Shown one piece after another: positions 3,468-57,960 of a DNA stretch of 64,000 nt. The DNA is from an uncultured Pirellulales bacterium (GTDB lineage: Bacteria; Planctomycetota; Phycisphaerae; Sedimentisphaerales; Anaerobacaceae). The DNA is taken from assembly GCA_964431695.1 (NCBI GenBank), contig CAYSKI010000020.1, positions 1,877 through 65,876 of the forward strand, given 5' to 3'. The notes beneath the pieces were generated by a model. It was not told the DNA's origin. It saw only the letters and a program-made list of their open reading frames with translations, and searched no databases. Every line of letters starts with the position of its first letter. Within the stretch, counting starts at the first letter, position 1. Made by a program: the position numbers and the translations under genes.

Positions 3468-3493
3468 AGTCGTCCCGGTGGGCAGAAAATTGT

Positions 3494-3568: not shown

Positions 3569-3777
3569 CTTTTTTTAGTGCGGCGGTCTTTTCCCCGGCA
3601 ATTCGGTCAAACCGCATGACAATCATCTCTACGGCGGAGGAATCGCGAGGAAACACATAAAACCAGCCTCGACGAACATGAGGAATATTTGCATGAATAA
3701 GTATGATGTGGTAACTTTACAGTTTTCTTTCGGAGGAATCGCTCAGAGAGCGCAAAGTTAAAGGTGAAAAGACTAAA

Positions 3778-4482: not shown

Positions 4483-4699
4483 TTTTCAGATTTCCTTATC
4501 GACGCATCAGCGATTCCGTCCTATAAAGAATACGCATCAGCGAGTAATCAGGTTCACTCCCTCATATCGAACACTATTTACCGACACTTTAATTGCAGCA
4601 GAACGCCAAAAAACAAATCAGGCTTCGTAAAAAGGGATATTTTCCTGTATAATAGGACTTTGGAATCCTTATTTCATTTACGTATTTAATGTTGCGAAC

Positions 4700-5335
4700 A
4701 TGGTTAGGCTAATGGCACGAATTTTGAAAGACTACGAGTCCGTATCTTTTAAAGAAAAAGAATTGGACGGTAAAATAGACTTTGTCCGGCTTTTCGGACG
4801 TTCGGGCCCGGTCCATATCGAAATCGGCTCCGGCAAAGGAACATTCCTTCTCAACCAGGCCAGGACCATGCCCGGTGACAATTTCCTCGGTATTGAATGG
4901 GCACGAAAGTATTACCGTTACGCCGTTGATCGAATCGGCCGATGGGGCCTGACGAATGTGCGCATCATTCGCACGGACGCCGCAGTTTTCATCGCCGAGT
5001 TTGTGCCGGACAACTGCGTGGATTGTTTCCATATTTATTTCCCTGATCCCTGGCCGAAAAAACGTCACCACAAAAGACGTTTTGTTTGCCCTGCCAATCT
5101 GGAGCATCTGATTCGCTGCTTGAAGAGCGACGGACAATTGCGAATTACCACCGACTACGCCGATTATTTCGAACAAATAAAAATGGTCTTGGCCGCACGC
5201 AGTGACATATTGGAAGAAATCGATTTTCTATCCGCCGCAGGAGCCGAGAGAGGCGAATGGGTCGGCACAAACTTCGAGCGAAAATACCTCAAAGACAACA
5301 GACCTATCTACGCCCTAGCCGCAAGGGAAAAATGA
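4700..5335 (+). CDS. trmB: tRNA (guanine46-N7)-methyltransferase
   Basis: IEIGSGKGTFLL (SAM motif I), FLGIEW, HIYFPDPWPKKRHHKRR. Confidence 0.9.
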   Translation: MVRLMARILKDYESVSFKEKELDGKIDFVRLFGRSGPVHIEIGSGKGTFLLNQARTMPGDNFLGIEWARKYYRYAVDRIGRWGLTNVRIIRTDAAVFIAEFVPDNCVDCFHIYFPDPWPKKRHHKRRFVCPANLEHLIRCLKSDGQLRITTDYADYFEQIKMVLAARSDILEEIDFLSAAGAERGEWVGTNFERKYLKDNRPIYALAAREK

Positions 5336-5342
5336 TATACTT

Positions 5343-5738
5343 TCAATTTACTTGTGAAATAAGATGAATGACATTTTCTCTGAAACTTTCAGCTATCTCT
5401 ATGCACTTCCGGCAGGTTTGTAGGTCCGGTTCAAAATCAGGCAAAACACTACCGACAGGATATTTAGAGGGTATATATATTGAGTCAAGAAGATCACGGT
5501 CGTCTTCGCTAATATCTACTTTCTGACCATGTTCTGTGAGAATCATAACCAGCTCGTTGATACTGTGAGTCTTTTTTATCTTAATCCCGTATTCTATCAA
5601 TACGGCTTTGAGCATTTTTTCAACCGCTTGCTGTACATTTTGCAGGCACGGATTGAAAAGCTGATTTTCAAAAAGCAACTTAGCCGATTGCAGATTATCG
5701 TCGGCGTTTGCAAGCCACTTTTCAGTCTGCTCTTTCAT
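5343..5738 (-). CDS. HEPN domain protein (toxin partner of MNT)
   Basis: MKEQTEKWLANADDNLQSAKLLFENQLFNPCLQNVQQAVEKMLKAVL is a typical HEPN N-terminus. Start chosen at the internal ATG at 5738 (longest ORF runs to 5780). It overlaps the MNT stop. Confidence 0.75.
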   Translation of the reverse strand: MKEQTEKWLANADDNLQSAKLLFENQLFNPCLQNVQQAVEKMLKAVLIEYGIKIKKTHSINELVMILTEHGQKVDISEDDRDLLDSIYIPSKYPVGSVLPDFEPDLQTCRKCIEIAESFRENVIHLISQVN

Positions 5739-15412: not shown

Positions 15413-17182
15413 ATGATTGGCAACAGCCAAAAAACATGCCACGGCAAATATATCACGTGGACTGTGGCTTTTGCAGTTGTTTTATGGGCTGGAGGGTATG
15501 TACACCTCTCGGCTCAGACAAACACAGAAGACGAAGCCACGGAAACTCTCAACAAGCTCCAAATCCAAATTCAGGACGTCGCCGAACCAAATGTTCCCAT
15601 GCCGGAAGTTTATAAAAACCCGCCGGAGATCATCGAGCAGATTGTCGGCGGCAAATCGGAGTGGAAATTATTTTATTTCTGCAAATATCAACCATCCGAT
15701 GAGTTAAAAAAGATTATTCACGAGCAATTCGCAACGAAGCTTTTTGATAAAAAAGGAAAAGATACACAAATCCCGGACTACAATATCAGCAGTAATCCTG
15801 CGACCAATCAGCTAATCGCCAGATGCCCGGCCCGCGAAGATGCCGAAGCGGTGCTCGAAACGCTAAATCAGGTAGATGTCCCTCCGATCCAGGTCAAGAT
15901 AGACTGCCTTATCTCCGAGATTTATGCGGATTTCACATTCGACCGGGAAACAACAATCGCTATTGAAAATTTAGTCGGCGAAAACGTTTCGTTAAAACCG
16001 GGAGGGACGGCTTTCGGCGACGATGTCCAGCAACTCATAGCGGACGATGAATATCTGGCGGCCTTTCCGGGTGCGTCTCTGAGGGAACTTATTCGTTCGA
16101 GAATGGGGCTCAAAATCGGATATTCGAGCACAGCCCATGAATTTACGGCCCTGGTGGACCTGCTTGAGTCAAGAGGATTTCTGAAAATCCTGATGAATCC
16201 CACACTCGAAATTGTCAACGGCAAAACAGCCATTGTTAAATCCTCCCAGCATGTCCCTTTACAAAAAGTTACCAAGACCATACCCGGTGCCGGTGCGACA
16301 TCAGTTGTCCTGACCGAAACGGAATATGTCGATGTCAACGATTCCCTTCAAATCACACCTCATGTCTTTGCCGACGGTTATATCGGTCTTGAAACCAGCA
16401 TCGTTCTCGGCGCAAAAAATACTCCCGACGGTGTCAAGCAGGTACCTATCCTGACCAAAAAGCAAATCAACAGCAAAGAAAACCGCATACGACCCGGCGA
16501 GAGTCTTATTATAGGCGGAATAAGGAAGACCGAAAAATTTGGTGTCGCCCGCGGTGTCCCGCTACTCAAGGACCTCCCCCTTATCGGCTTTCTCTTCTCC
16601 GGCGAAGATACCGAGCAGCGGGCCGTCGAGACTGTGTTCATCCTGACTCCGACCATTTCCACAAACGGCAGGCCGCGGGAGGAAATCATGGCCGAGATTC
16701 GAAGAAAACACGAAGCGACACCATCCGCCAATGGTATTGCCGATATGATAATGGATCCGTTCGGCATAAAAGACCGAGAACATGCCCAGGAACAAAAGAC
16801 GATTGAAGCCGAGCAGGCTCGCCATAAGGCCGAAGTGGAAAAGGCAGATGCCCAAATAGCCGTAAGGCAGGCCGACGAGCGTCTCAGGAAGGCCGAAGAA
16901 GAACTCCAGCGAACGAAAAACGAGGCAGAGGAAACTAAAGCGGCAGCGGAAAAAAAGGCTGCCGAAGCCGATGAAAAAACCAGGGCCGCCGAACAGGCCA
17001 TAACCGCCGCAGACAAGGCGATAGCCGATGCCAAACAGGCACAGGAGCGGACAGATCAAAATAAAGCAGAGAATGATGAAAAGAGCAGTTCTGATAAACC
17101 CGCGGCGGTAGAAGCGAGAAAACCACAGGAAGAATCAGAAGAAGTAAAAAACGAAAACGCCAAGGATGATTCCGAAGCTTAG
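15413..17182 (+). CDS. secretin (type II/III secretion system family, CpaC/PilQ-like) with long C-terminal coiled-coil tail
   Basis: Signal peptide; one secretin_N-like module (NQLIARCPAREDAEAVLETLNQVDVPPIQVKIDCLISEI). Secretin core ENRIRPGESLIIGGIRK..GVPLLKDLPLIGFLFSG..ETVFILTPTI. It ends with about 160 aa of K/E/A-rich heptad-like sequence. Confidence 0.85.
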   Translation: MIGNSQKTCHGKYITWTVAFAVVLWAGGYVHLSAQTNTEDEATETLNKLQIQIQDVAEPNVPMPEVYKNPPEIIEQIVGGKSEWKLFYFCKYQPSDELKKIIHEQFATKLFDKKGKDTQIPDYNISSNPATNQLIARCPAREDAEAVLETLNQVDVPPIQVKIDCLISEIYADFTFDRETTIAIENLVGENVSLKPGGTAFGDDVQQLIADDEYLAAFPGASLRELIRSRMGLKIGYSSTAHEFTALVDLLESRGFLKILMNPTLEIVNGKTAIVKSSQHVPLQKVTKTIPGAGATSVVLTETEYVDVNDSLQITPHVFADGYIGLETSIVLGAKNTPDGVKQVPILTKKQINSKENRIRPGESLIIGGIRKTEKFGVARGVPLLKDLPLIGFLFSGEDTEQRAVETVFILTPTISTNGRPREEIMAEIRRKHEATPSANGIADMIMDPFGIKDREHAQEQKTIEAEQARHKAEVEKADAQIAVRQADERLRKAEEELQRTKNEAEETKAAAEKKAAEADEKTRAAEQAITAADKAIADAKQAQERTDQNKAENDEKSSSDKPAAVEARKPQEESEEVKNENAKDDSEA

Positions 17183-43746: not shown

Positions 43747-45228
43747 CTACAATTCCCATCCGGTACGGTAAGGCGGATCGATCAAATCATTAGCCTGCCT
43801 GTTGTTCGTTATACGCATTTTCTCGGCATCCCACTGGAGTACCCTTCTTGTGCGCAGTGCCACCGAGCCAAGTAAAGCCAGCTCGGTCATCTCACAGCCG
43901 AAAGTAACCGGACAAACCGTCTCTTTGCCCTCCTTACAGGCTTGTGTCCATTCGCCGTAGTGGTCGTCAACACGGCGTAATGTTTTCGGCGGCGGCTGGA
44001 AGTCCCGGAACTTTTCCTGCGGCAATAATATCCCCCCTTCGAGTGCACCGGGCCCGTCTCTATCGCTTCTTCTCCGATTACCCAAAGGATTTCCACCATA
44101 ATAACCTGCGATCAGCTTGCCCTTTTCACCGACAAAAAGCAATCCGCTGTTCCTAAATTCCATGCCGGGATCGAACTCGGGCGGACGATGAGGTTTCATG
44201 CCTCCGTCATACCAGAACAATTTCAAAGGCGGCAAATTACCTCTTGCCGGATACTCCCAGGTCACCATGTTCGCATTGGACTGGCATTCCGTCGTTGGCT
44301 GATTTTGGAAGAACCCGACATTCCGGGTAGAAGCATAACCGTAAATGGTCCGGGGCGCACTCAGTTGTAGCTCTTTAAAGAATATATGCAAAGTATGGCA
44401 GGCCATATCCCCCACAGTACCCGAACCGAAATCCCACCATGGCCGCCAGTTCTCGGGATGATAGGCCGAATTAAACGGCCTGTACGGCGCCGGGCCTATC
44501 CACAAATCCCAATCCATTCCCTGCGGCGGTCTCTGTTCGTCGGTCGGCCTGGTCAAAGAACACGGATAAGTCGGATGGTCGCACCAGATATGTAACTCTC
44601 GCACCGGGCCGATGGCCCCGCAGGTAAGCAGCTCCGTTGTGCTTCGAGCTTCTTCCGTGGCGGCGGACTGAACACTCGAGAGAGTAACGAGTTTGGGATT
44701 TTTGAGCAGTGCTTTTTTGAAACGTCTGGCTTCGCCGATGGTGTGCGTAATCGGCTTTGCGCAGTAAATATGCTTGCCGAGATGAATGCCGGTGTTGAGA
44801 AGATGCGCGTGGCTATGGTCCGGAACAGCGATAATAAGCGCATCGAAGTTTTTCGCCTCTTTATCGAACATCTTACGGTAATCATGATAGCGCCCGGCAT
44901 CCGGATATTGTTGGAACACTCCCCTTTTGTTCACTAAATCGTGGTCGAGATCGCACAAGGCAACGATTCTTTCTTTCGCGCAACCGGCAAGATAGTTGCG
45001 GCCCATGCCGGTAACACCCACACAAGCGATAGTTAGAGTATCGCTTGGCGCCTGATATCCGGGACCTCCCATGACGAAACGAGGAACAATAAATGGTGCG
45101 GCAAGCCCGGCAGCTAAAACACTACGCCGTGATATCCCATTACCGGTGCTCTTGCCAACATTGTCGGATTGCTTTGGATGATCGTTTTGCAACAGCATTA
45201 GAATTACTTCCCTTGAGTGCATGAGCAT
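43747..45228 (-). CDS. Gfo/Idh/MocA-family oxidoreductase with Tat signal
   Basis: SRRSVLAAGLAAPFIV twin-arginine-like signal. IACVGVTGMGRNY Rossmann motif and YCAKPITH. The start is ambiguous (45228/45222/45198). Confidence 0.8.
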   Translation of the reverse strand: MLMHSREVILMLLQNDHPKQSDNVGKSTGNGISRRSVLAAGLAAPFIVPRFVMGGPGYQAPSDTLTIACVGVTGMGRNYLAGCAKERIVALCDLDHDLVNKRGVFQQYPDAGRYHDYRKMFDKEAKNFDALIIAVPDHSHAHLLNTGIHLGKHIYCAKPITHTIGEARRFKKALLKNPKLVTLSSVQSAATEEARSTTELLTCGAIGPVRELHIWCDHPTYPCSLTRPTDEQRPPQGMDWDLWIGPAPYRPFNSAYHPENWRPWWDFGSGTVGDMACHTLHIFFKELQLSAPRTIYGYASTRNVGFFQNQPTTECQSNANMVTWEYPARGNLPPLKLFWYDGGMKPHRPPEFDPGMEFRNSGLLFVGEKGKLIAGYYGGNPLGNRRRSDRDGPGALEGGILLPQEKFRDFQPPPKTLRRVDDHYGEWTQACKEGKETVCPVTFGCEMTELALLGSVALRTRRVLQWDAEKMRITNNRQANDLIDPPYRTGWEL

Positions 45229-45411
45229 TCTTTAATTCAGCCCACGCCGAGAATTAATCATCACATTTCGTTATATTCCTGTGTTTATGCTTTCCCACAG
45301 GAACCAGGTTATTATAACCATTTTTACATGATTTGAAAGATTATTGTCCGCAGTGAATTGCAACAACGCGGGTATTACGGCAATAGCCGGATTTTATTAA
45401 CCTGTAATCAA

Positions 45412-45957
45412 TTATAAAGGTTGTCGTTCGGCTAAAATGTCTTTATAGTCGGCACAAAATCCCTTGCGTCCACATCGGCTGCAGTAATTTCCCCTCCATA
45501 TATTGTCGAATTGATCCATAATCTTAGCGACAATTTCACTGTCGTCGGTAATAATCCCTGATTCGAAATTTCGTTTATTCTCACTTTTCGCCCCCATCCC
45601 GGCACCGGTAAGATTGGCACTGCCACTATAAGCAAAATCACCGTCAACTACTACGGCCTTAAGATGGACTCTCGGGCAAAGGATACGCTCTACGCCGTTT
45701 ATCAAATTCGGGTATTTGTCAAAATCCTCCCGAAAAGCCTTTCCAGGCTCCTTTGCATGTAACAGCCTTATTTCGACATGCCTGCCGGACAAATCGGACA
45801 GAATCTCAAGAAACGGCACCATCCTGCCATGCTTTTCCACGTAAAGGTCTTTCAAATCCGATGTTGCGATCCACACAAACCTCTGGGCTTTCATAAGCGG
45901 CCCACATATTACCTTTTCATATATGTCCCTGTCTGTAATGAACTCAAGCATCTCCAT
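45412..45957 (-). CDS. single-HKD phospholipase D-family (Nuc-like) protein
   Basis: HLKAVVVDGDFAYSGSANLT is one HxK(x)4D(x)6GSxN motif. C-terminal CSRCGRKGFC cluster. 181 aa. Confidence 0.75.
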   Translation of the reverse strand: MEMLEFITDRDIYEKVICGPLMKAQRFVWIATSDLKDLYVEKHGRMVPFLEILSDLSGRHVEIRLLHAKEPGKAFREDFDKYPNLINGVERILCPRVHLKAVVVDGDFAYSGSANLTGAGMGAKSENKRNFESGIITDDSEIVAKIMDQFDNIWRGNYCSRCGRKGFCADYKDILAERQPL

Positions 45958-46060
45958 TCCACTATATTGCCCTTAAAATTCATACCTCAAAAATTAAACG
46001 GGCAAAAAATAATATTTCTCTGAACCAGTGTTTGACCGTCCGGACCATTGTACAGGTCTA

Positions 46061-46140
46061 TTAAAGTGCCTAAAGTTGAAAGTGAGCTAAAGTCGACAGT
46101 TATTAACTTTAGTGGCTTTAGCTCACTTTAGACACTTTAG
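46061..46140. repeat. dyad-symmetric array of CTAAAG / CTTTAG motifs
   Basis: (T/C)TAAAGT at 46062, 46071, (GAAAGT 46078) and 46088. CTTTAG at 46107, 46116, 46126 and 46135, with 9-10 bp spacing. aaagtgagctaaag (46079-46092) pairs with ctttagctcacttt (46116-46129). Confidence 0.7.
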
Positions 46141-46154
46141 TTCATTTTCAACTG

Positions 46155-47276
46155 CTATTCAACCGTACTGGCCGAGCTCTGCGGAGAACCGACCAGATAT
46201 ATTCTGTTTTTTCCGCTCCTTTTCGCCTCAAGCAACGCCTTATCGGCCTGCTCAAAAAGTTCCTGTATCGAAGAGCCGTCACGGGGAAAACTTGCAAGGC
46301 CGCCGCTGATAGTCAGGACGCCCTTGCCCTCGGGGCCCAGGCTGCCGCCGCTGCTATTGCCCAGGGACGCCGGAGCTTTTTCCAATTCCTTGACAAACCG
46401 TCTCGCTATTAATATCGCTTCCTCAGGATGATCTGTTGTTGCCGAACGTCTCTCGCGATTTGTATCTCTCATTTCGTATCCGGTCTTCAGTGGATCACTT
46501 GTTTCCTGAATATAAGGATCGTCCCAGAAAATCACGGCAAATTCGTCACCGCCTATTCTGCCGACAACATCGTGACTCCGACAGCAGCGTCTCATTAAAA
46601 CACCGACTTGCCTTAAGATTTCATCTCCTGCATAATGGCCGTAGAGGTCGTTGTAATTTTTAAAATCATCTATATCGAAAATCAACAACGTCACCCGTTC
46701 ATTTTCAACACGGGCATGCTCTATAATCTGCCTGGAAAATTCCCAGATATATCTTCTGTTCTTCAAACCCGTCAAATCGTCTTCCGTGGCCAGTTTTTCC
46801 AGGTGCTTAATCCTCGTCTCCATCGTGGGATCAATAATGGTAGATTTTTCAGGTTCGGCCGCCCCACCGCCGCTCGGATTCAAAAGAAACTCGACGAATT
46901 CATCCGCCCGGACCGGACATATCATATAATCATCCACCAAAGGCATTCCGTTATAACCCGAGGATACCATGCGGATCGCAATCGGTTCTTCGTACATTTG
47001 TGCCAGTAGGACAATCCTTGAATCGCAGGTGTTTCTTATGGCTTTGATACCTGAGTTTAATTTGAGAATGTTTCCGGACATTACCACCGCAATTGCGGCA
47101 CAATCTTCAAGTACTGCGGCACCAATCGCGTCACCCAGTGAGGGCATCGTGACCAGCTCGCAGTTTACAGATAAATTCCGATCCACAAATGATGAACAAT
47201 AAAAGGCTTTGCTGATATCGCCTATCAGTAAAACTTTCTTGTCCGAACTCAGAGATTCTTCTTTTTTGACTGCCAC
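46155..47276 (-). CDS. diguanylate cyclase (GGDEF) with degenerate receiver-like N-terminal domain
   Basis: RSHDVVGRIGGDEF has an intact GGDEF plus an RxxD I-site 5 residues upstream. The N-terminal ~120 aa are CheY-like in layout, but I see no obvious phospho-acceptor Asp. GTG start after GGAGGTGG. Confidence 0.85.
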   Translation of the reverse strand: MAVKKEESLSSDKKVLLIGDISKAFYCSSFVDRNLSVNCELVTMPSLGDAIGAAVLEDCAAIAVVMSGNILKLNSGIKAIRNTCDSRIVLLAQMYEEPIAIRMVSSGYNGMPLVDDYMICPVRADEFVEFLLNPSGGGAAEPEKSTIIDPTMETRIKHLEKLATEDDLTGLKNRRYIWEFSRQIIEHARVENERVTLLIFDIDDFKNYNDLYGHYAGDEILRQVGVLMRRCCRSHDVVGRIGGDEFAVIFWDDPYIQETSDPLKTGYEMRDTNRERRSATTDHPEEAILIARRFVKELEKAPASLGNSSGGSLGPEGKGVLTISGGLASFPRDGSSIQELFEQADKALLEAKRSGKNRIYLVGSPQSSASTVE

Positions 47277-47345
47277 CTTTTACCACCTCCGGGTGAGTCC
47301 ATAGCCCATCGATAAAAATTTAATCAATGAACTACAGACATTATA

Positions 47346-49247
47346 TCAATTTGCGGGTAAACCGTCCAGATTCTTTTGGACCTGCTCGACATAAAAGCTA
47401 TTGGGATACAAGCTCAGGAAGCTTGCCAGAATTGCTCTTGCCTCACCGAGACACTTCTTCTTTAGCTGCTGATCCGATTCATCCTGCCGCCGCCAGAGAC
47501 TAATTTTCAAAAGACCAAGCTCGTACAACGCCTGAATTCCACCATCGGTGTCCCGATATTCCCTGTGCAGGTCGTCTAATTTCTCCGCTCTAAGAACTTC
47601 ATTATTAATTAGTTTAGCCTGGGCCAACAGAATATTATCTCGTAGCGGGCTGCTGTCCTTTGTCTGTTGAAGCAGCCTGTCTAATTGCTGTGAATAACTC
47701 AGAGAATGAGGATTAAGCATAGCAAATCGAGCAAGAAGCTCTTTAGATTCGGGCTCACCTGCCCGATTTTCCTGTCCTATCAGAGTCCGAAGATGATCCA
47801 GTCTTCTTTGCAGCTCGTTTAACCTCGGTATCGTCATCACGGTATCAATGGGGGAACGAAATAGTCCGAATATCGATTCGTTCGGCCTCTGTTTTTCCCT
47901 GAGTAACTTAATTTGCTCGTTCACAATCGTTTGGGTTTCGATAAGAAGCGCATCAGCCTGTTCAAATATACCTCTTCCGGCCCAAAGCTTCGCAATACGC
48001 CATCTCGCTTCAAGCGATTCCGGGCTGTTCCCAAAATCCCGATACAGTCTAAACCAGGTCTCAGCCGATTTGTCCTGGGGGTAATCACTATAGAAACGCA
48101 ACACTTCCTCGTCACCAAGGTCTTTTATATCGGGACTGTATTCACTTAAAATAGCTTTGAAGTAAAGCGCGATGGGCATTCGACGGCTGTTGGGCCGGTT
48201 GGTAATAAACATATCGTACTGTTCATCCAGCCATTGTTTTTTCGCCTGATACTTCAATTCCGCCGGTACGATAAACCAGGTAGGCCAACGGTCGTAACTT
48301 AGCTGAATCTGAATTTCCCTTTTCAATTCCGCTCGCAGTGCGGCTTGTTCGGTAGGGTAGAAAAAACTTTGCAGATATTTCTGAATTGCAGGATCCCGGG
48401 TCGTTTTGTCCAGTGCTTCCGTAATGCTGCGGTCGTGAAATTCGCTGACGTGTTCGGGATTATTTTTAGCAATATAAAGCTGATAGTCCAGCTCATCGAA
48501 ACCAATAGCAACCTCGAATACTATCACAGCTATTAAAAGTGTAAGAGTGGTGAAAATCCAGACCAATCCCGGCTTATACCGTGTAAAATGACCGATACCA
48601 AGAACAAATCCTGCAATTATTAAACTTTCCAGCCAGGCACAAATCCAGGGGGCGAAAGAAAAACCCCATTCAATCGGCTCCACTCCCCTGGCACCGCCAA
48701 AATACCCCCAGTACGCCAACTGCGGAGCAGCACACAAAGCGACCGCGATAAAGCGTGAACGAAAACGAAGCGGCCGACATGCCACCGCAAAACAGCTTAT
48801 TAACAAACAGAGTGCAAAGCCCGGCAGATTGGCAAAGAAAACTACTTCCAATATGAAAGGAAGACTATATTCGAAACTCATCAACTGCGAGATCAATACA
48901 GGTGTAATCGCCAGGATTCCCATTAACAGTCCCAAAACGAGAATCTGCCAGGGGTACTCAAATATGCTTACGACGGTGACAAGAGATTTATCCAGACGCC
49001 AAAATTCCGGCGTGGATACCGCTTCAATCTCGAATGACAAAAACGATCCGGTGGCTATTTTCGACCAAAACAGACAGCTTATACCAAAAGCCACGATTGC
49101 AAGAAGCCAGCATCTTTGAACGTTTTTATGGCTGTAATGCAGTGTGGGACCGAATGTTATAAAAGACTTCGTGACTACGATGGGCGCCTTTTCGGTCTCT
49201 TTATTTTCCATGAGCTTCACCTCATCGCTGCTTGTCAGCCACGACAT
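47346..49247 (-). CDS. hypothetical polytopic membrane protein with helical-repeat (TPR-like) C-terminal half
   Basis: About 8 TM segments in the first 250 aa, then about 380 aa of helical repeat-like sequence. No family recognised. Confidence 0.55.
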   Translation of the reverse strand: MSWLTSSDEVKLMENKETEKAPIVVTKSFITFGPTLHYSHKNVQRCWLLAIVAFGISCLFWSKIATGSFLSFEIEAVSTPEFWRLDKSLVTVVSIFEYPWQILVLGLLMGILAITPVLISQLMSFEYSLPFILEVVFFANLPGFALCLLISCFAVACRPLRFRSRFIAVALCAAPQLAYWGYFGGARGVEPIEWGFSFAPWICAWLESLIIAGFVLGIGHFTRYKPGLVWIFTTLTLLIAVIVFEVAIGFDELDYQLYIAKNNPEHVSEFHDRSITEALDKTTRDPAIQKYLQSFFYPTEQAALRAELKREIQIQLSYDRWPTWFIVPAELKYQAKKQWLDEQYDMFITNRPNSRRMPIALYFKAILSEYSPDIKDLGDEEVLRFYSDYPQDKSAETWFRLYRDFGNSPESLEARWRIAKLWAGRGIFEQADALLIETQTIVNEQIKLLREKQRPNESIFGLFRSPIDTVMTIPRLNELQRRLDHLRTLIGQENRAGEPESKELLARFAMLNPHSLSYSQQLDRLLQQTKDSSPLRDNILLAQAKLINNEVLRAEKLDDLHREYRDTDGGIQALYELGLLKISLWRRQDESDQQLKKKCLGEARAILASFLSLYPNSFYVEQVQKNLDGLPAN

Positions 49248-49286
49248 TCAATCCAAACCACCAACATCAAGAAACGCAGTGCGAAC

Positions 49287-50546
49287 TTATGTACCTTCAC
49301 CGCTCGAGGCAAGATAGGCAATTTGTTCGGCAGTGAGTTTATCAATCTTTAACGACATGGATTTAAGTTTTAGCCTGCTGACCTGATGTTCGATCTCCAT
49401 CGGAACATCATAAACGTCAACGGACAGCTTACCCTGATTTTTAATTACGTGTTCGGCCTGTAGCGCCTGTGTAGCAAAACTCATATCCATCACACTGGCG
49501 GGATGCCCCTCGGCGGCGGCAAGATTAATCAGCCGTCCCTCCCCGAGAAGATAAATGCGCTTATTATTTTTCATGATATATTCATCAACACAGTGACGCA
49601 CATTCCGGACAACTTTTTTGCTTAGTTTCTTAAGGGCCGGGATGTCCAGCTCGACATTGAAATGGCCGCTGTTAGCAACAACCGCTCTGTCTTTCATAGC
49701 CCGGAAGTGCTCGGCGCGTATAACATTTTTGTTACCGGTCAGCGTGACAAACAACCCGCCCACCTTTGCCGCTTCGGCCATGGGCATGACCGAAAAGCCA
49801 TCCATCGATGCTTCAAGGGCCTTTACTGCGTCAACTTCGGTGACAATAACGATAGCCCCCATTCCTCTGGCCCGCATGGCGAAGCCTCGCCCGCACCATC
49901 CGTAACCGGCGACAACAACTTTCTTGCCCGCCATGAGAAAATCCGTCGCCCGGATTATTCCGTCAACAGTCGATTGGCCAGTACCGTAACGATTATCGAA
50001 TAAGTGTTTGGTCGCTGCGTCGTTTACCGCAATGACCGGAAAGTTCAGCTTGCCTTTGTTGGCCATTGCCCGCAAACGAATGACACCGGTCGTGGTTTCT
50101 TCCATACTTGCAATAATCCGACCGGCATCCTTTTTCCTGCGAGTATGCAGCTCGTTAACAAGGTCGGCCCCGTCATCGAATGTAATTACCGGCTTGTGAT
50201 CGATGGCCGCATTGATATGTTTGTAGTACGTGCTTCGATTCTCCCCGCAAACGGCAAAAACCGATATCTTAAAATCCTTGACTAAAGAAGCCGCAACATC
50301 ATCCTGAGTGCTCAGCGGATTGGACGCGCAAAGAACAAGGTTCGCCCCGCCCGCTTTCAGCGCCCGGGCCAGGTTTGCCGTCTCAGCGGTAATATGCAGG
50401 CAGGCCGAGACGTTTTTACCCTTCAAAGGCTTTGATTTTGCAAATCTTTCACGAATCGCCGCTAAAACCGGCATATCGTTGTCCGCCCAGAGTATGCGTT
50501 TTTTACCTGTGCCGGACAAAGACAAATCAGCTACATCATATTTCAT
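49287..50546 (-). CDS. ahcY: adenosylhomocysteinase
   Basis: [21 protein letters not shown].., [17 protein letters not shown] motif, [12 protein letters not shown] at 50546; the longer ORF to 50648 is unlikely. Confidence 0.93.
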
Positions 50547-50582
50547 ATTTTGAACCCTTTCATAGAATAGGCAAGAATCACA

Positions 50583-50611
50583 AATATATGATGTTTCAGT
50601 ACATTTTGCAA
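50583..50611 (-). promoter_or_regulatory. candidate ahcY promoter
   Basis: On the minus strand: TTGCAA (50606-50611), 17-nt spacer, TATATT (50583-50588). Confidence 0.5.
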
Positions 50612-50678
50612 CCTTTATTTGCCCAAATCTATCCCTCATATTTACCACGAAAAATTATGTAAATTTAGGAAAAATAGC

Positions 50679-50707
50679 TTGACAGAACCATAAAAACGTA
50701 CTACAAT
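50679..50707 (+). promoter_or_regulatory. near-consensus sigma70 promoter heading a ~560-nt leader
   Basis: TTGACA (50679-50684), exactly 17 nt, TACAAT (50702-50707). This is the same architecture as the tRNA-His promoter. Confidence 0.6.
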
Positions 50708-51273
50708 CAAAATAGAGACAGGTAGGTTTGACTTAATATCATAATTTAATCTGTCATCATATATTTTTGTAATATCATATCTTAAACCCGCCTGCCTGAC
50801 AGAAGGCTCATTTATATTTTGGATTGGCTTTTTTGTCGATGGCAATTTTGCGCGTTGAACCAGCGCCGAAAAGACAGACAGGCATAAAAGAATTATAACA
50901 ATCTCCGTCGTCATTATATTTTAGTTGTTTCATTTCTCTGACCTGCCTGCCGACAATCGGCATAAGTCTCATGGTACCAGGATTACTCCGAACGATAAAC
51001 GAGCGGATTGCGCAAAACTTATCGGCGAATTTACCAGATTTGGATGTACCGACCGTTTTTGAGCGAAAAAAAAGAACTCTGGAGATTCGCGAAAAAACGG
51101 CGTTAAGTTTTATCCGTAATTTCTTTGGCAGTCCCGTAAGGGACGCCAAAGGCGGGATGGCTTAACCGCGATCCCGATAATTAGCTGTACTTATTTATCA
51201 ACAGATAGAATATCGAAATGTGCTCAGAAACGCTCGGCCATGCGAATCTCCGAAAATTGAAAGGAGAATTAAA

Positions 51274-52551
51274 ATGAAACGCAAAGGTTTTACACTGGTT
51301 GAGCTTCTGGTCGTTATCGCGATCATAGCTCTGTTAATGGGCATTTTAATGCCCGCACTGTCGAAGGTTCGGCAGATTGCCCACAGGTTAGTCTGTGGAA
51401 CCAATCTGTCCGGCATCGGTAAGGCAATGATGGTCTATGCCAACGAGTACGAAGACGAATTCCCGCGAGCGGGCGGCAGAACCACCGAATGGGCCGACAA
51501 GATCAATAACTGGCAGGCACTCAACCGATATGAAGCTTTCGGTATTGCCGCTGATGGTACGGGTGGTCACGCATCCGTTACATCCAGCCTTTATCTTTTG
51601 GTCAAGTATACCGAGGTCACACCACAATCATTCGTTTGCAAAAGTGATTCAGGAGTATCTGAGTTTAATCCGGTTGATTATGGAGTATTGGACAGGGACA
51701 TAACCCAGCTTTGGGATTTCGGTCCCTATAACAGTCAAGAAGATAATCCCGGCTCCCATTGCAGCTACTCCTATCACATGCCCTACAGCCTCTATGCCCT
51801 GACCACATCGAGTGACCCGTCTCTGGCAGTTGCAGCCGACAGGAATCCCTGGATTAAATCCCCGTCGGGGGCCCAAAAGATATTTCCTGATGCATATATC
51901 GCCGGCGGCGGCTCTGAGGCCGTAAAAGCAGGCAATTCTCCCTCGCATCAGGGCGATTCACAAAACGTGCTGTTCGTGGACATCCATGTTGACCAGGAAA
52001 AAACTCCTGCCTGTGGTGTGCAGGAAGACAACATCTACACCTATTGGGGTACAAGCCAGGATCCACGGCTGGGATGCGCACCGGCATCAAACACCAAGCC
52101 CTCGGGCAGACTGGATTCATACCTCGTAAACGACGGTCTCGGACCGAAAAACAGGAGTTGTTTTACCGGTGACACTCCCGTGTGGATAAACGGGACAATG
52201 GTTGAAATTTCCAAGGTCGTCACAGGTCAAATAATCAACGCGCTCGCATCTGCCCCGGTTGAAAAACTCGAAGAGCACGATGGTTTATTCGAATGTCGGG
52301 ATATCGTGCTCGAAAACGCCAATTGCGTCAGTGTTGTCGATGCACACAGATTCATGCTCGAAAATGGAAATTGGGCCGCCGCCCAAAACTTAAGAAGCGG
52401 TTTCAGACTGAAAACCCTGAACGGCACAATCGGAATCAAGAGCGTTACAGTCAGAGCGATGCCCTATATGGGTAAAGTTTATAATTTGAAGGTTCAAAAT
52501 TCAGAGCAATACGCAGTCGGTCAAGATGGGCTTATCGTACGTGATTGGTAA
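51274..52551 (+). CDS. prepilin-type (DUF1559/H-X9-DG-like) pseudopilin with C-terminal Hint (intein-like) domain
   Basis: MKRKG|FTLVELLVVIAIIALLMGILMPAL; HQGDSQNVLFVDIHV box. From nt 52159: CFTGDTPVWINGTMVEISKV..VDAHRFML..KVYNLKVQNSEQYAVGQDGLIVRDW*. ATG at 51274 after AAAGGAG. Confidence 0.85.
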   Translation: MKRKGFTLVELLVVIAIIALLMGILMPALSKVRQIAHRLVCGTNLSGIGKAMMVYANEYEDEFPRAGGRTTEWADKINNWQALNRYEAFGIAADGTGGHASVTSSLYLLVKYTEVTPQSFVCKSDSGVSEFNPVDYGVLDRDITQLWDFGPYNSQEDNPGSHCSYSYHMPYSLYALTTSSDPSLAVAADRNPWIKSPSGAQKIFPDAYIAGGGSEAVKAGNSPSHQGDSQNVLFVDIHVDQEKTPACGVQEDNIYTYWGTSQDPRLGCAPASNTKPSGRLDSYLVNDGLGPKNRSCFTGDTPVWINGTMVEISKVVTGQIINALASAPVEKLEEHDGLFECRDIVLENANCVSVVDAHRFMLENGNWAAAQNLRSGFRLKTLNGTIGIKSVTVRAMPYMGKVYNLKVQNSEQYAVGQDGLIVRDW

Positions 52552-52641
52552 TCCGTCCCTAATGACCAAGTTCTCAAACATAAGCCCCTCTGGGTCCGTC
52601 TAATCGGATTGCGTTAAAACAGTCCATGTGCTGATTGCTTT

Positions 52642-52682
52642 CGGGCGGCTTTGTGTGGCGGAGCGCAAGGCCGCCCGTTTTT
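52642..52682 (+). terminator. rho-independent terminator of the pseudopilin-Hint gene
   Basis: cgggcggc (52642-52649) pairs with gccgcccg (52670-52677), followed by TTTTT. Confidence 0.7.
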
Positions 52683-52716
52683 AAAAATATGTCTGATAAC
52701 TACAGGAGTACATCTA

Positions 52717-55700
52717 ATGACGATTATTTCGCAACAGAGCTTTGAAACCGAACCGAGGTCGAACAGCGCAGCCATCACATTCAGCAACCAGGCAAGCATT
52801 AACTGGCTGATGATGATATATTTTGCTTCCGGTATATGCTCGCTGATAGACGAGGTCATCTGGGTACGACTTCTTAAGCTGACTATCGGTAATACGGTGT
52901 ATGCAACAAGTATTGTGGTATCGACGTTTATGGCAGGATTGGCGCTGGGTGCTTTTATCATGTCCCGATACTCGGACCGCATTAAAAAACGACTGCAACT
53001 TTATGCCATCATAGAGACCCTTATAACCATTTCCGCTTTGCTGTTGCCGTGGGCCCTAAATATTGCAGATAAGATATATGTCTGGTTCTACCGTACTTAT
53101 GCACCAACGCCAAAAGAGCTGCTGGTTGTCCAGGTCGTTATCTCCGGATTGCTTGTGCTTGGGCCGTCCATGCTTATGGGAAGCACATTCCCGCTTTTAG
53201 GCAGATACGTGACCTCACTTGAAAACCAGACCGGCCGTTTGGTCGGCAGACTTTACGCCCTCAATACTCTCGGTGCAGCCGTTGGTTGCTTTATGGCCGG
53301 ATTCGTTCTGATCCGCTCGATGGGGATTATGGGTACATTGTACACAGCGGCAATAATCAATCTTTTTGTGGCTTTTGCCGGATGGCTTTTATCCCGATTT
53401 TCCAGGACTACTGCCGGAGAACATTGCCAGGAAACTCAGATTGTAAATGTGGAGATTATTGGGGCCTCTTCAGGTGGCGGTCGGATGTATCTGCTTCTTT
53501 TCGCTTTTTTTCTGAGCGGCTTAATCAGCATAGGCTATGAGCTGCTTTGGATGCGAAGCATCGTACATTTGCTAAGCGGATATACCTACGTTTTTTCGTC
53601 CGTTCTGACTATATATCTGCTTGGAAACGTTATCGGTGCGGGCATCGGCAGTGGACTTGTCAAAGAATTGAAAAGTCCCGCCGCCGGATTCGCCGTGACA
53701 CTATGCCTGTTGGGAATATACGGAATTTTGTATCTGCCCTTATTAATTCACTGGACTTCTGATATTCTGCCGGGTATCGATAGGGAAGTAGAGCTGGCAA
53801 GCAGAATCTTTTCGTTTTCAACATATATGATCCGGCCTCTCGTACAAAGCGCATTTTTGTTCCTGCTGCCGTCAATTATAATGGGAGCAGGCTTTCCTTT
53901 AGCACTACAAGCCTGGGCCGGCCACGTGCACAAAGTAGGCCGAACCACAGGATCGGCTTATGGAACGAATACTATAGGGGCAGTCGTTGGTGGAATCGCT
54001 ACCGGCTTTATTTTAATCCCGCTTCTGGGACTGCAGCTTACGATGTCCATCCTCTCTTTGGCGGGGATTTGGATTGCCGCTTTTATATGGATGCTGTTCG
54101 CCCGCCGCAACAAGGCATCGATCCGTCCGGAATTGTTGGTAGTCGCGGCAATTTCGACGTCGATTGTTGTTATAATGCCGCCGGATTTATTTAATACTGT
54201 GATTCAATGTAATCCGAGACTTCCCAGACAGCTCGAATTTGTTGCGGCCAAGGAAGGTGTCGCCACAACTGTATCTCTGCACAGAGACCACCAGGAGGAT
54301 ACTCTGTATCTTTGCACATCCGGCCAGAGAGTGGCAGGTGACACATACTTTTGGCGCAGCGACCAGAAAATGTTGGGGCACTTCGGAGTATTACTCAATA
54401 GTAAGGCGAAAAAAGTCCTGTCTATCGGATTCGGCTCAGGTGAAAGTACGGCCTGTATGGCACTCCATAAACTCGAAAGGGCCGATTGCGTGGAGATTGC
54501 CCCGGAAATCGTGGAACTTTCTTCCAGTTTTTTCAGGCATATTAATCTCAGTGACAGGCTGAACGATGAAATCGGTATGATTTATATGGACGCAAAAAAT
54601 TATATCCATCTGACAGACCTCAAATACGATGCTATCGTCAACGACTCCATCCATCCGAAGCATTTTGCAGAAAACTCGTCTCTTTATTCAAAAGAATACT
54701 TTGAAGACGCGAAGAAGCGCCTCGATGAAAACGGATTGTTTATCTCATGGATACCCACACACAATGTTGAGCCGGTTTATGTAATCAACAGCATCATCGG
54801 CACGATGATGGAGGTATTTCCTCACGTGACAATATGGTATATGACGCCGGACCCGGCCCAATATTTCCTCGTAGTCGGTTCGGAGAAGCCCCAGTATTTT
54901 TCACCCAGGCATATAGAGAAAGAATTATCGAAAGACGGCGTGCGTGAGAGCCTCTCCGAGATAAACATCAACAATAGTATGGATGTAATTAGCTGCTACA
55001 TCGGCGATGAGAACGACATGAGATGCTTCATCCGTTCATATACTACCAACAGTGACTTCCGACCTTTCATTGAGTTTACCACAGCCGACCAGCCCTCCGG
55101 CAGCTCGATGTTCCGGCGGTTTATTTCCAGTATCAGGAGTAATTCCGTTTATGAACATATTGACTGGAATGGATTCGGCCGGGAGCAAAAGAGCAAATGG
55201 CTTTCGGAATATGCGATTGTTCACAACGCCTCGAACTACCTGCTCGCCTCGAACGGGACCTCGAATCCCCTGGAAAGGTTGAGCTGCTGCATGGAGGGAC
55301 TTGCCATCCTGCCGGACAATCCCGCCCTTTCTAACCTGAGAAGAAGGACCGAGAAAGAGATTTTCACCGTTTATTCGAGCAGGATAAATTCCTATAGAAC
55401 AGAGGAGGCCTTGTTACAAGCGGAGAAAATGCTGAAAATCTATCCTCGCTCGGCGGTGGCGTGGCTGATTAAGTCGTTGTCCATGCAGCAAAAAGGCGAA
55501 ATTCAGGGAGCGCTCGAAGCGGCAAAGACAGCCGTCCGGCTGTCGCCTGAAACAGCGGATGCCCACTTTGTCCTCGGCACTATTTTATGCCGTAGCGGGC
55601 AAATGAATGCAGCAATCACCGAGTACAACAACGCAATGCGGCTTTCTGAACGGCCCCAAAAGTCTGCCATCTATAGTCAGGCAAAGATGTTGGATATTCT

Positions 55701-55818
55701 GACAAATTCTCGTATCGGTTCCGTCGAAAATATCGAGGCTAAATCCACCTCCGAGAAAAAAATGCTGGGATTGACCGGCGTACTCGAAAGAACCGCTGAT
55801 GAGACATCGGCAGATTGA
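52717..55818 (+). CDS. fused polytopic membrane / spermidine synthase-like methyltransferase-fold / TPR protein
   Basis: About 14 TM segments, then VLSIGFGSGESTACMA..VEIAPEIVELS..DAIVNDSIHP (SpeE-like class I fold), then C-terminal TPRs. ATG at 52717 after AGGAG; the longer ORF start lies inside the upstream terminator. Confidence 0.75.
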   Translation: MTIISQQSFETEPRSNSAAITFSNQASINWLMMIYFASGICSLIDEVIWVRLLKLTIGNTVYATSIVVSTFMAGLALGAFIMSRYSDRIKKRLQLYAIIETLITISALLLPWALNIADKIYVWFYRTYAPTPKELLVVQVVISGLLVLGPSMLMGSTFPLLGRYVTSLENQTGRLVGRLYALNTLGAAVGCFMAGFVLIRSMGIMGTLYTAAIINLFVAFAGWLLSRFSRTTAGEHCQETQIVNVEIIGASSGGGRMYLLLFAFFLSGLISIGYELLWMRSIVHLLSGYTYVFSSVLTIYLLGNVIGAGIGSGLVKELKSPAAGFAVTLCLLGIYGILYLPLLIHWTSDILPGIDREVELASRIFSFSTYMIRPLVQSAFLFLLPSIIMGAGFPLALQAWAGHVHKVGRTTGSAYGTNTIGAVVGGIATGFILIPLLGLQLTMSILSLAGIWIAAFIWMLFARRNKASIRPELLVVAAISTSIVVIMPPDLFNTVIQCNPRLPRQLEFVAAKEGVATTVSLHRDHQEDTLYLCTSGQRVAGDTYFWRSDQKMLGHFGVLLNSKAKKVLSIGFGSGESTACMALHKLERADCVEIAPEIVELSSSFFRHINLSDRLNDEIGMIYMDAKNYIHLTDLKYDAIVNDSIHPKHFAENSSLYSKEYFEDAKKRLDENGLFISWIPTHNVEPVYVINSIIGTMMEVFPHVTIWYMTPDPAQYFLVVGSEKPQYFSPRHIEKELSKDGVRESLSEININNSMDVISCYIGDENDMRCFIRSYTTNSDFRPFIEFTTADQPSGSSMFRRFISSIRSNSVYEHIDWNGFGREQKSKWLSEYAIVHNASNYLLASNGTSNPLERLSCCMEGLAILPDNPALSNLRRRTEKEIFTVYSSRINSYRTEEALLQAEKMLKIYPRSAVAWLIKSLSMQQKGEIQGALEAAKTAVRLSPETADAHFVLGTILCRSGQMNAAITEYNNAMRLSERPQKSAIYSQAKMLDILTNSRIGSVENIEAKSTSEKKMLGLTGVLERTADETSAD

Positions 55819-55858
55819 CCGGGTACGAACAAACCTTCACTACCTCGGTCATCCACAG

Positions 55859-55901
55859 GGCGGCTTTGCAAAACTCAGCGCAAAGCCGCCGGTTTTATTT
55901 T
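55859..55901 (+). terminator. rho-independent terminator
   Basis: ggcggctttgc (55859-55869) pairs with gcaaagccgcc (55880-55890), followed by ggttttatttt. Confidence 0.8.
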
Positions 55902-55992
55902 AAATTCACTTTTGGCAAAGTAAAAATCTGTCGTTAAAATACACTCTCAGTTTTCAATTGAATATTAGCTTCTCTTGTATGGGAGCCGAATA

Positions 55993-57960
55993 ATGGGACA
56001 AACGTTAGTCTATAAAATACTCGACAAACATCTGGTCGAAGGCAAGCTCGCGCCTTCTGAGCGTATTGGCATTCGCATCGACCAGACGCTCACACAGGAT
56101 GCCACAGGCACAACGGCTTTTCTGCTGTACGAATCCATAGGCATCGGGACAGTTTTAACCGACCTGTCAGTCAGCTACGTTGATCATAATTTGGCGGGTT
56201 TCGGCCCGGAGAACCACAATGACCACCTGTACCTGCAAACAGCCGCGGCAAAATACGGCGTTTATTTTTCACGGCCGGGAAACGGCATCTGCCATCAGGT
56301 GCACTTGGAGCGGTTTGGCAAACCAGGCGCGACACTCCTTGGCAGCGACTCACATACGCCGACCGGCGGTGGAATCGGTATGTTAGCTATCGGAGCCGGC
56401 GGTCTGGATGTGGCGGTCGCTATGGCCGGAGGGCCGTTCTACCTGCAATGCCCGAAGGTCCTGGGAGTACAATTAACCGGTGAGCTGAACGACTGGGTTG
56501 CAGCAAAAGATGTGATTCTCAAGTTGCTAAGCATCCTATCGACGAAAGGCAATGTCGGCTGGGTGGTGGAGTATTTAGGTGAAGGAGCGGAAAAACTTTC
56601 CGTACCTCAGCGGGCGACAATCACAAATATGGGGGCCGAATTAGGCGTGACGACGAGCGTCTTTCCCAGCGACCAGCAGACACAGAAATTTCTCACCGCA
56701 CAGAAACGCCGGAAGGATTATCAACCTTTGACAGCGGATACGGACGCCGAATACGACCGCATAATCGAAATCAATCTGGCCGAGCTTGAGCCAATGGCGG
56801 CGTGCCCATCTTCGCCGGACAACATCAAAACTGTAAAAGAAATCACCGGGCAGAAAATCTCCCAGGTCGTAATCGGCAGTTGCACGAATTCCAGCTTCAC
56901 CGACTTGATGATGGTCGCCGGGGTACTCAAAGGCAGGTGCGTAGATAAGATGGTCGAACTTGCAATTGCTCCGGGCAGTAAGGAAGTTCTGAATATGTTA
57001 GCCGACAACGGAGCTTTGGCGGACATGATCTCCGCGGGGGCAAGGATTCTGGAATCCGGCTGCGGGCCATGCATCGGCCAGGGTTTATCACCGGCAAACG
57101 ACACGGTGACTTTGCGGACATTCAACAGGAACTTCGCCGGCCGGACCGGTACAAAAGCAGACCAGTCCTATTTAGTCAGCCCGGAAACGGCGGTCGCTTC
57201 CGCCCTGACAGGCCAAATCACAGACCCGCGTAATTTACCGGAATTGTTCGCCATTAAATATCCGAAGATAGAATTGCCGGACGAATTTACCATCAACGAT
57301 AATATGATAGAAAAACCTTTACCCGAAAAAGAAGCGGCCAAGGTAGAGGTTCTGCGGGGGCCCACAATTGTGGTACCGGAGGCGGCCAGTCCGTTGCCGG
57401 AGAAACTAACGGGCAAGGTGCTGCTTAAATGCGGCGACAAAATCACCACCGATCATATTATGCCGGCGGGAACTTTTCTGAAGCTTCGCTCGAATGTTCC
57501 CGAATACGCAAAGGTTGTTTTCAACTGTTTCAACGAAGACGGCAAACCGACTTTCGCCCAGCGCGCTATCGAATTAAAAAAGAACGGGATCGCCGGTATT
57601 GTTGTGGCCGGTGAGAGCTACGGCCAAGGCTCGTCGAGAGAGCACGCGGCCCTGTGTCCGATGTATCTGGGCGTCAGGGTCGTTATCGCGAAAAGCATCG
57701 AGCGGATACACAAGGCGAATTTGATTAATTTCTGTATTGTCCCGATAGAATTCACCGAGCCGGCGGATTACGATAAAATCACTCCGGATGACGAGCTTCG
57801 AATCGACAATCTGCTCGAAGCAATCAAGAGCGGCGAAAAAGTAAAAATCACCACCGCTGACGGTTCGTTCGAATTCACCGGCAAGCTGGAACTCTCCGAA
57901 CGAGACAGGGAGATTTTACTTTCCGCAGGTTTGTTAAACTTTATACGAACAAAGGCATAG
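55993..57960 (+). CDS. aconitate hydratase (~650-aa short form)
   Basis: DQTLTQDATG, GNGICHQVH, GSDSHTPTGG, GSCTNSS, CGPCIG, and swivel domain GESYGQGSSREHAA. Confidence 0.88.
   Translation: MGQTLVYKILDKHLVEGKLAPSERIGIRIDQTLTQDATGTTAFLLYESIGIGTVLTDLSVSYVDHNLAGFGPENHNDHLYLQTAAAKYGVYFSRPGNGICHQVHLERFGKPGATLLGSDSHTPTGGGIGMLAIGAGGLDVAVAMAGGPFYLQCPKVLGVQLTGELNDWVAAKDVILKLLSILSTKGNVGWVVEYLGEGAEKLSVPQRATITNMGAELGVTTSVFPSDQQTQKFLTAQKRRKDYQPLTADTDAEYDRIIEINLAELEPMAACPSSPDNIKTVKEITGQKISQVVIGSCTNSSFTDLMMVAGVLKGRCVDKMVELAIAPGSKEVLNMLADNGALADMISAGARILESGCGPCIGQGLSPANDTVTLRTFNRNFAGRTGTKADQSYLVSPETAVASALTGQITDPRNLPELFAIKYPKIELPDEFTINDNMIEKPLPEKEAAKVEVLRGPTIVVPEAASPLPEKLTGKVLLKCGDKITTDHIMPAGTFLKLRSNVPEYAKVVFNCFNEDGKPTFAQRAIELKKNGIAGIVVAGESYGQGSSREHAALCPMYLGVRVVIAKSIERIHKANLINFCIVPIEFTEPADYDKITPDDELRIDNLLEAIKSGEKVKITTADGSFEFTGKLELSERDREILLSAGLLNFIRTKA

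Follow-up and report, generated by a model that had tools for sequence, protein, structure and literature searches.

The first step in the chemistry of a Hint domain is an N-to-S acyl shift at the N-terminus of the domain itself, and when a C-extein nucleophile and asparagine cyclisation are lacking the outcome is N-terminal cleavage only, as in Hedgehog proteins and in cleavage-only bacterial intein-like (BIL) domains (PMC7765530). The A-type BIL, or PT-HINT, domains (PF07591) end in His-Asn and release a toxin or variable region that follows them at the C-terminus (PMC3482391, PMC7765530). Here we describe a gene of an uncultured planctomycete that joins a domain of this kind to a type IV pilin-like protein. 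The gene lies in a 64,000-nucleotide stretch of contig CAYSKI010000020.1 (hereafter the window) as an uninterrupted open reading frame (ORF) on the + strand, from the ATG at 51274 to the TAA at 52549-52551 (ORF 51274-52551), and its 425-residue product, which we call the pilin-Hint protein, ends with the Hint domain. A survey of modular type IV pilins by Raynaud et al. (2021; PMC8179133) contains the combination 'IPR012902 - PF07591' once, in a supplementary table, tabulated without comment or analysis. That line apart, we found no account of self-processing pseudopilins, in keeping with a first-pass annotation of this DNA, which knew of none; our full-text literature search, whose coverage leaves out most subscription papers, turned up neither a self-processing pilin nor, for Planctomycetota, a terminal Hint cassette.

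The elements of the gene are given below. Conservation was counted over two sets, 114 pilin-Hint relatives and 92 complete Hint modules on diverse, unrelated carriers, and coding constraint as the ratio of non-synonymous to synonymous substitution rates (dN/dS).

51274-51288, + strand: prepilin leader MKRKG, with an inferred prepilin-peptidase cleavage after Gly5; PF07963 and TIGR02532 above their cut-offs.
51289-51384, + strand: hydrophobic pilin helix, residues 6-37, nearly invariant in the family (columns 6-29 invariant).
51385-52122, + strand: globular pilin body, residues 38-283, containing the HQGDSQNVLFVDIHV motif at residues 225-239; not detectably DUF1559.
52123-52158, + strand: linker and junction, residues 284-295, LVNDGLGPKNRS, with the predicted scissile bond Ser295-Cys296; model confidence (pLDDT) below 50.
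52159-52548, + strand: Hint (BIL/PT-HINT-like) domain, residues 296-425, running to the final residue of the protein; assigned from fold, profile and dN/dS.
52159-52161, + strand: codon TGT of Cys296, predicted nucleophile and Hint position 1; 114/114 relatives, 92/92 modules.
52300-52302, + strand: codon of Asp343, an acidic residue in the strand before block B that may be a general base; 114/114 and 84/92; aligned to a His of the Clostridium thermocellum BIL domain.
52345-52347, + strand: codon of His358, the block-B His, here in V-D-A-H; 114/114 and 92/92.
52540-52551, + strand: Arg423-Asp424-Trp425-stop, which replaces the block-G His-Asn of inteins and BIL domains, with one aromatic residue after it; Arg and Asp each 114/114.

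Residues 296-425 have the Hint fold, a conclusion that is solid when the relatives are considered together with the window protein. Since the window protein alone only grazes the Hint models, the assignment needed independent support. PT-HINT is matched by 30 of 31 relatives at an expectation value (E) below 0.01 (best 8.4e-7), two carriers of the module, P0160 and P0164, score 28.1 and 27.9 bits against it, and many full-length relatives have a precomputed assignment to both PF07591 and PF07963. Over its whole length, a family profile of the C-terminal part can be aligned with the BIL domain of C. thermocellum (2lwy; E 2e-5), so that Cys296 corresponds to residue 1, His358 to the His of TFDH (the TxxH of block B), VYNLKV..Y.VG to block F and IVR to the LVH of block G. 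The AlphaFold model of residues 300-425 has a pLDDT of 70-88, and the top 50 Foldseek matches in the PDB are all Hint-fold proteins (inteins, BIL domains and Hedgehog; E down to 6e-8, TM-scores 0.61-0.77). They include Tetrahymena BIL2, the DnaB, gp41-1, DnaE and RecA inteins, the C. thermocellum BIL domain (TM-score 0.77) and the Hedgehog structures 1at0 and 6tyy (E 3e-5). Neither the Hedgehog family PF01079 nor Hint_2 (PF13403) matched the window protein at E up to 10, Hedgehog sequences gave no profile alignment with the family profile, and a single-sequence search of the C-terminal 140 residues against PDB sequences returned no match. The first-pass annotation had proposed a prepilin fused to a terminal Hint domain, with blocks A, B and F/G beginning at the Cys codon at nt 52159. 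The fusion, the N-terminal nucleophile and the block-B His are borne out by these data.

The domain is thus closest to the A-type BIL/PT-HINT domains, although divergent from them. It is nearest to them by both sequence and fold, shares Cys1, the block-B His and the VYN...Y.VG of block F, occurs like them in exported bacterial proteins, and would likewise be expected to cleave at its own N-terminus through a thioester. It differs from them at its end, where Arg-Asp and one aromatic residue are followed directly by the stop codon. Since no further sequence comes after it, its cargo is the protein on its N-terminal side, and a conserved P-P-P-K-G-R linker forms part of the unit. Canonical inteins differ in having a C-extein that begins with Cys, Ser or Thr and a His-Asn in block G. 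The pilin-Hint protein ends in IVRDW-stop, with no +1 nucleophile and, as had been noted from the sequence, no C-extein and no His-Asn; the Arg-Asp that stands in place of the His-Asn is without exception among the relatives. The final residue in the 114 relatives is Trp in 61, Phe in 28, Tyr in 23 and Asn in 2.

Cys296, Phe297, Asp343, His358, Asn404, Arg423 and Asp424 are invariant in all 114 relatives; on unrelated carriers, Cys1, Phe2, the block-B His, Gly400 and Asn404 are kept in 92 of 92 modules, the terminal Arg in 85 and the Asp in 89. Of the 130 positions in the module, about 45 reach a conservation of 85% or more on unrelated carriers, the invariant Arg-Asp-aromatic end among them. 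Upstream of the Cys, Arg294 is kept in 112/114 pilin relatives, the wider linker consensus is P-P-P-K-G-R-x (K in 72, G in 56 and R in 64 of the 92 modules), and the residue at -1 is mostly Ala, Gly, Ser or Thr.

The fusion could in principle be an assembly chimera, a frameshifted gene pair or a decaying pseudogene, but we assign these readings a negligible probability. The sole initial ground for suspicion was the sub-threshold Hint score of the window protein by itself, and nothing in their favour came to light. At least 120 clusters matched over 100% of the query in a full-length search (59-93% identity, 417-446 residues), drawn from JGI, ENA, NCBI and Logan assemblies, and pilin-Hint ORFs are uninterrupted at 8 genome loci and 51 metagenome loci. 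For six pairs, dN/dS was 0.08-0.24 in the pilin body and 0.11-0.40 in the Hint part, with dS up to >2, which indicates purifying selection on both halves. With more than 120 independent full-length relatives from separate assembly sources, intact ORFs and low dN/dS, chimera, frameshift and pseudogene were all rejected, and the worry of the first-pass annotation that the 3' part might be a separate gene or a chimera is answered. The source names that could be recovered are all Phycisphaerae, Sedimentisphaerales, Phycisphaerales, Planctomycetota, or subsurface and sediment metagenomes.

The N-terminal part carries a class III signal peptide, MKRKG/FTLVELLVV, with a short basic leader, Gly at -1, Phe at +1, Glu at +5 and a hydrophobic helix. 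Residues 1-26 score 33.5 bits against PF07963 (N_methyl; cut-off 21.2) and 29.6 bits against TIGR02532 (cut-off 16.3), so the canonical prepilin signal read by the first-pass annotation was correct. The N-terminal 54 positions of the GspG model TIGR01710 align with residues 4-57, and a helix spans residues 8-37 or 8-41 in the two AlphaFold models. The start codon is supported by homologues, which begin with the identical MKRKGF. For the body, two AlphaFold runs gave low confidence; its model has a mean pLDDT of 61, and a Foldseek search of the PDB with it gave no match better than E 2.6. The first-pass annotation had likened the body to DUF1559 pseudopilins through an H-X9-DG box, and this did not hold: 0 of 31 family members match PF07596 (DUF1559) or TIGR04294 (H-X9-DG) at E<=0.01, the best score among relatives is 13.8 bits (P0400) against a cut-off of 19, and the motif itself is H-X10-D-x-H, alike at motif level only. 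The window has a second prepilin-type gene at 2516-3325, encoding 269 residues, whose globular part belongs to no Pfam or NCBIfam family; it had been called a paralogue of the pilin-Hint gene, but the two proteins share only their first 62 residues.

The Hint domain is not peculiar to pilins. Homologue searches based on word indexing, run with the domain alone or its profile, returned only short fragments, and our survey of architectures rests instead on a profile search run exhaustively over 1.84 billion representative proteins. That search found the cassette in 103 representative clusters at E<1e-30, on carriers of 200-1500 residues, with a match that nearly always reaches the last residue. 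The module sits at the final residue in about 95 of 117 strong matches and in all metagenome ORFs but one (83 of 84), which a contig end truncates; 51 of the 84 are pilins. The layout is constant: a Pro-rich PKGR linker, Cys-Phe, the Hint domain, and ...VRD-aromatic-stop. The cargo varies and includes NosD, right-handed beta-helix and Disaggr_assoc domains, WD40, PQQ-type propellers, LVIVD repeats, Laminin_G_3, Big_7, dockerin, and FGE-sulfatase with CarboxypepD_reg, and most carriers begin with a Sec-type signal peptide, as judged by eye. Remoter PT-HINT matches (for example P0260) are internal, end in VHN and have more protein after them, and for this reason we treat the family with the terminal Arg-Asp-aromatic as a discrete subfamily. 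Because the cassette is common to about 100 unrelated exported protein families of Phycisphaerae and Sedimentisphaerales, its role must be generic rather than pilin-specific, and the pilin-centred framing of the first-pass annotation has to be given up. Taken together, the sequence comparisons show linker plus Hint to behave as a portable unit.

Several observations on the carriers stand apart from this. Minority variants (P0237, P0239, a pilin, P0247 and P0252; P0227, a pilin, P0242, P0246 and P0253) continue past the Arg-Asp-aromatic position and end in ...VAAVD/CSKLPGE-stop or in ...VALD/CSKTTWETLEKARK-stop, that is, in an Asp followed by a +1 Cys and a tail of 7-14 residues. These ends resemble the C-terminal junction of an intein in which Asp has taken the position of the Asn, and such proteins might splice onto a short peptide or be cleaved at both ends. 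Many non-pilin carriers (P0170, P0175, P0181-P0183 and P0164) have at least one copy of a domain of about 90 residues directly before the cassette, with the motifs SW.PG..A.SHDVYFGT and YYWRIDE..T.G..W.F.T, often together with dockerin-like DINGD..V.F.DFA repeats. At locus L024, a pilin-like ORF (175-990) is followed by a 543-residue signal-peptide protein (1142-2773; Disaggr_assoc/beta-helix) that ends in the cassette, ...PPPKGRG/CF...VIVRDY, and then by an 856-residue beta-helix protein (2933-5503) that has no cassette.

The cassettes on unrelated proteins can be 93-96% identical, as in a comparison of P0154, P0155 and P0157, where P0154 is a NosD/beta-helix protein and P0157 a WD40 protein, although the rest of the two proteins is unrelated; this suggests recent shuffling of cassettes or gene conversion between the 3' ends of genes. 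One possibility is that the cassette is a selfish or nearly neutral BIL element that spreads by recombination to the 3' ends of genes for exported proteins and is tolerated through its self-removal, with no benefit to the host. This near-identity, together with the existence of orthologues that function without the cassette, would be compatible with such an element, as would the hypervariable regions of non-conserved proteins that BIL domains are said to occupy (PMC7765530). We nevertheless consider it very unlikely, since a single stop codon could remove the cassette, yet it is kept at two orthologous loci in many genomes with dN/dS of about 0.1-0.2 and dS reaching >2, and no homing endonuclease or mobile-element genes were found near the examined pilin-Hint loci.

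These loci also contain natural forms of the pilin that lack the Hint domain. One conserved slot lies upstream of aconitase and is occupied by either Hint-less or Hint-bearing pilin genes, the window gene being of that type; the other lies between a gene resembling UDP-sugar pyrophosphorylase and smpB/trpC/glnS. Pilin-Hint genes also occur as tandem pairs (L096, L108, L109, L134). In species-representative genomes, Hint-less pilins are 42-58% identical to residues 1-287/294, after which homology ends; their termini, ...PTGRH-stop and ...PPGRSY-stop (L009), like that of the L001 copy described below, fall 1-4 residues past the conserved Gly-Arg, at the predicted cleavage junction. A search for Hint remnants downstream of the Hint-less pilin genes found none. 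The closest relative of the window is L001, whose DNA is about 90% identical and which shares synteny over window positions 44301-57734. It has a Hint-less tandem copy (L001:7014-7910; 298 residues, 73% identical, ending ...TQGRQRNN-stop) directly upstream of its pilin-Hint gene. The window has no such copy, and its own leader, at 51048-51273, is homologous to the one that precedes this first L001 copy (compared over 50938-51273 of the window).

On balance we lean towards the view that the Hint domain is a self-removing C-terminal propeptide that acts through an N-to-S acyl shift at Ser295-Cys296. The precursor is a type IV pilin-like (pseudopilin-type) protein composed of a class III signal peptide and helix, a body of about 250 residues with a flexible linker, and a terminal Hint domain of 130 residues. 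Once the C-terminal part had been exported across the inner membrane, the Hint domain would carry out the acyl shift at that bond, assisted by His358 and possibly also by Asp343, His335 and Arg423. No splicing could follow because the +1 nucleophile and the terminal Asn are absent. The thioester would most simply be resolved by water, giving a pilin that ends in ...PKNRS and a separate Hint fragment of 14 kDa. The propeptide may serve to keep its cargo unassembled, soluble or correctly folded until export, in the manner of the self-cleaving C-terminal chaperone domains of tailspikes.

Those domains, the peptidase S74 domains of phage tailspikes and endosialidases, are strictly C-terminal chaperones that are removed autocatalytically after folding or assembly, and the protein upstream of them is often a right-handed beta-helix. 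The cassette is likewise strictly C-terminal, and many of its carriers are beta-helix proteins. Fold and chemistry are unrelated, S74 using a Ser-Lys dyad and Hint a thioester, and for the cassette a chaperone role is a proposal. Pilins fused to a self-cleaving S74 chaperone domain (IPR030392) are also listed in the survey of modular pilins (PMC8179133).

Several points weigh against a self-removing propeptide. The chemistry is what we infer from conservation, and cleavage is predicted. The window protein alone scores 19.4 bits against PT-HINT, and its Hint domain alone 22.1 bits, both under the gathering score of 27.7, and its match to intein_Nterm is sub-threshold (E 0.0026). At the position of the TxxH Thr the modules have Ala (47/92) or Val (44/92), so that this Thr is lost. 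Pro is found at -1 in 17 of the 114 relatives (15%), which argues against uniformly efficient cleavage; canonical inteins tolerate Pro at this position poorly. The module is conserved beyond what self-cleavage alone seems to require, a hint that there may be a partner or some further chemical step besides hydrolysis. Finally, the Hint-less orthologues show that the pilin can exist and function without the domain, so that the benefit of a propeptide is undefined.

The loss of the Thr and the frequency of Pro at -1 would also fit a domain that did not cleave at all and stayed on the filament or its tip in a binding or structural role, like the vWA and lectin modules of Streptococcus sanguinis PilB and PilC. 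Modular pilins with C-terminal modules grafted onto them are widespread, 264 architectures having been reported (PMC8179133), and the arrangement of pilin module, short linker and extra C-terminal module is indeed the same. In those proteins, however, the module is a permanent effector (an adhesin or a lectin), whereas the one described here is predicted to remove itself and is common to non-pilins. A non-cleaving module seems to us decidedly unlikely: Cys296 and His358 are absolute (114/114 and 92/92) on carriers of unrelated function, the module also ends enzymes, propellers and beta-helix proteins that have no connection with filaments, and the natural Hint-less forms end at the junction.

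A closer competitor to hydrolysis is Hedgehog-like ligation, in which the same thioester at residue 295 would be attacked by a nucleophile other than water, so that pilins and many surface proteins became covalently anchored or cross-linked through their C-termini. Candidate nucleophiles are a hydroxyl of a lipid or polysaccharide, an amine of peptidoglycan or a lipid, and a Lys of another subunit. In its layout the protein follows Hedgehog, with an exported cargo, a small residue followed by Cys-Phe, a C-terminal Hint domain and no C-extein, and therefore an N-terminal acyl shift only would be expected. In favour of ligation, the carriers are typical surface or adhesin-type proteins, and the Pro-rich spacer ahead of the junction is reminiscent of the wall-spanning spacers that precede sorting signals. 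The conservation of the cassette beyond the apparent needs of self-cleavage, with an invariant Asp343 and an Arg-Asp-aromatic end, would fit as well, given that in Hog domains an Asp or His activates cholesterol (PMC7765530). On the other hand, Asp343 could not be equated with Hedgehog Asp46, the protein ends a single residue past the Hint domain with no region for recognition of a sterol or other adduct, the Hint-less orthologues at the same locus have no alternative anchoring signal, and no transferase or partner gene is conserved nearby. The family also differs from Hedgehog in having no PF01079 match and in being bacterial and lineage-restricted, and there is no sign of lipid transfer. We regard ligation as doubtful but substantial enough to be kept in mind. 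Its fuller form, a bacterial counterpart of Hedgehog that sorts pilins and about a hundred kinds of surface proteins without a separate enzyme, with the thioester passing to an envelope component or to the Lys of an adjacent subunit to give covalently anchored surface proteins and possibly covalently cross-linked type IV-like filaments, we hold to be unlikely.

The cassette looks like a general, undescribed C-terminal processing tag. The established C-terminal tags (LPXTG with sortase, PEP-CTERM with exosortase and the C-terminal domain of the type IX secretion system) need a separate processing enzyme. The cassette resembles them in being a lineage-specific unit on many unrelated surface proteins, preceded by a Pro-rich spacer and, as predicted here, removed in maturation. 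It differs from them in bearing its own catalytic residues, and no partner gene was found nearby: beside 160 related loci, there was no conserved partner gene and no pilus or type II secretion machinery, only housekeeping genes.

The signals flanking the pilin-Hint gene in the window are the following.

50679-50707, + strand: best match to a sigma-70-like promoter, TTGACA-17-TACAAT, predicted; 11 of 12 consensus positions.
51262-51266, + strand: Shine-Dalgarno sequence AGGAG, 7 nt 5' of the ATG, by direct reading of the sequence.
52642-52682, + strand: hairpin resembling an intrinsic terminator, with a 15-bp stem (10 GC pairs) followed by TTTTT, about 90 nt 3' of the stop codon.

The hairpin, confirmed over 52642-52677 with its 15-bp stem and T-run, agrees with the terminator placed at 52642-52682 by the first-pass annotation, and the gene appears to be monocistronic. 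The 625-bp intergenic region and leader upstream had no match in Rfam. The neighbours of the gene encode AdoHcyase, a spermidine-synthase/TPR membrane protein and aconitase. The second of these, a membrane protein of 1055 residues with a spermidine-synthase domain and C-terminal TPR repeats (52651-55818), lies between the pilin-Hint and aconitase genes and lacks a counterpart at that position in L001, indicating a recent insertion or deletion. Two genes upstream of the pilin-Hint gene, a multi-pass membrane protein of 633 residues (47346-49247, - strand) is kept in L001 and has no Pfam family at E<1e-5. A secretin gene of the type II secretion or type IV pilus type (PF00263) is found at 15413-17182, 34 kb upstream of the pilin-Hint gene.

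If cleavage occurs as predicted, the pilin-Hint protein would be the first self-processing pilin. The cassette that it shares with dozens of unrelated exported proteins of anaerobic sediment Planctomycetota would then amount to a C-terminal tag used across the lineage and equipped with its own processing enzyme. As a compact domain of 130 residues with a defined upstream linker and no need of a C-extein, the cassette may also be of use to protein engineering as a self-cleaving tag. Its arrangement of cargo, Cys-Phe and terminal Hint is a prokaryotic version of the Hedgehog layout and as such bears on the origin of Hog domains. In these bacteria, the cassette makes it possible to test whether Hint thioesters are used for the C-terminal maturation or anchoring of surface proteins.

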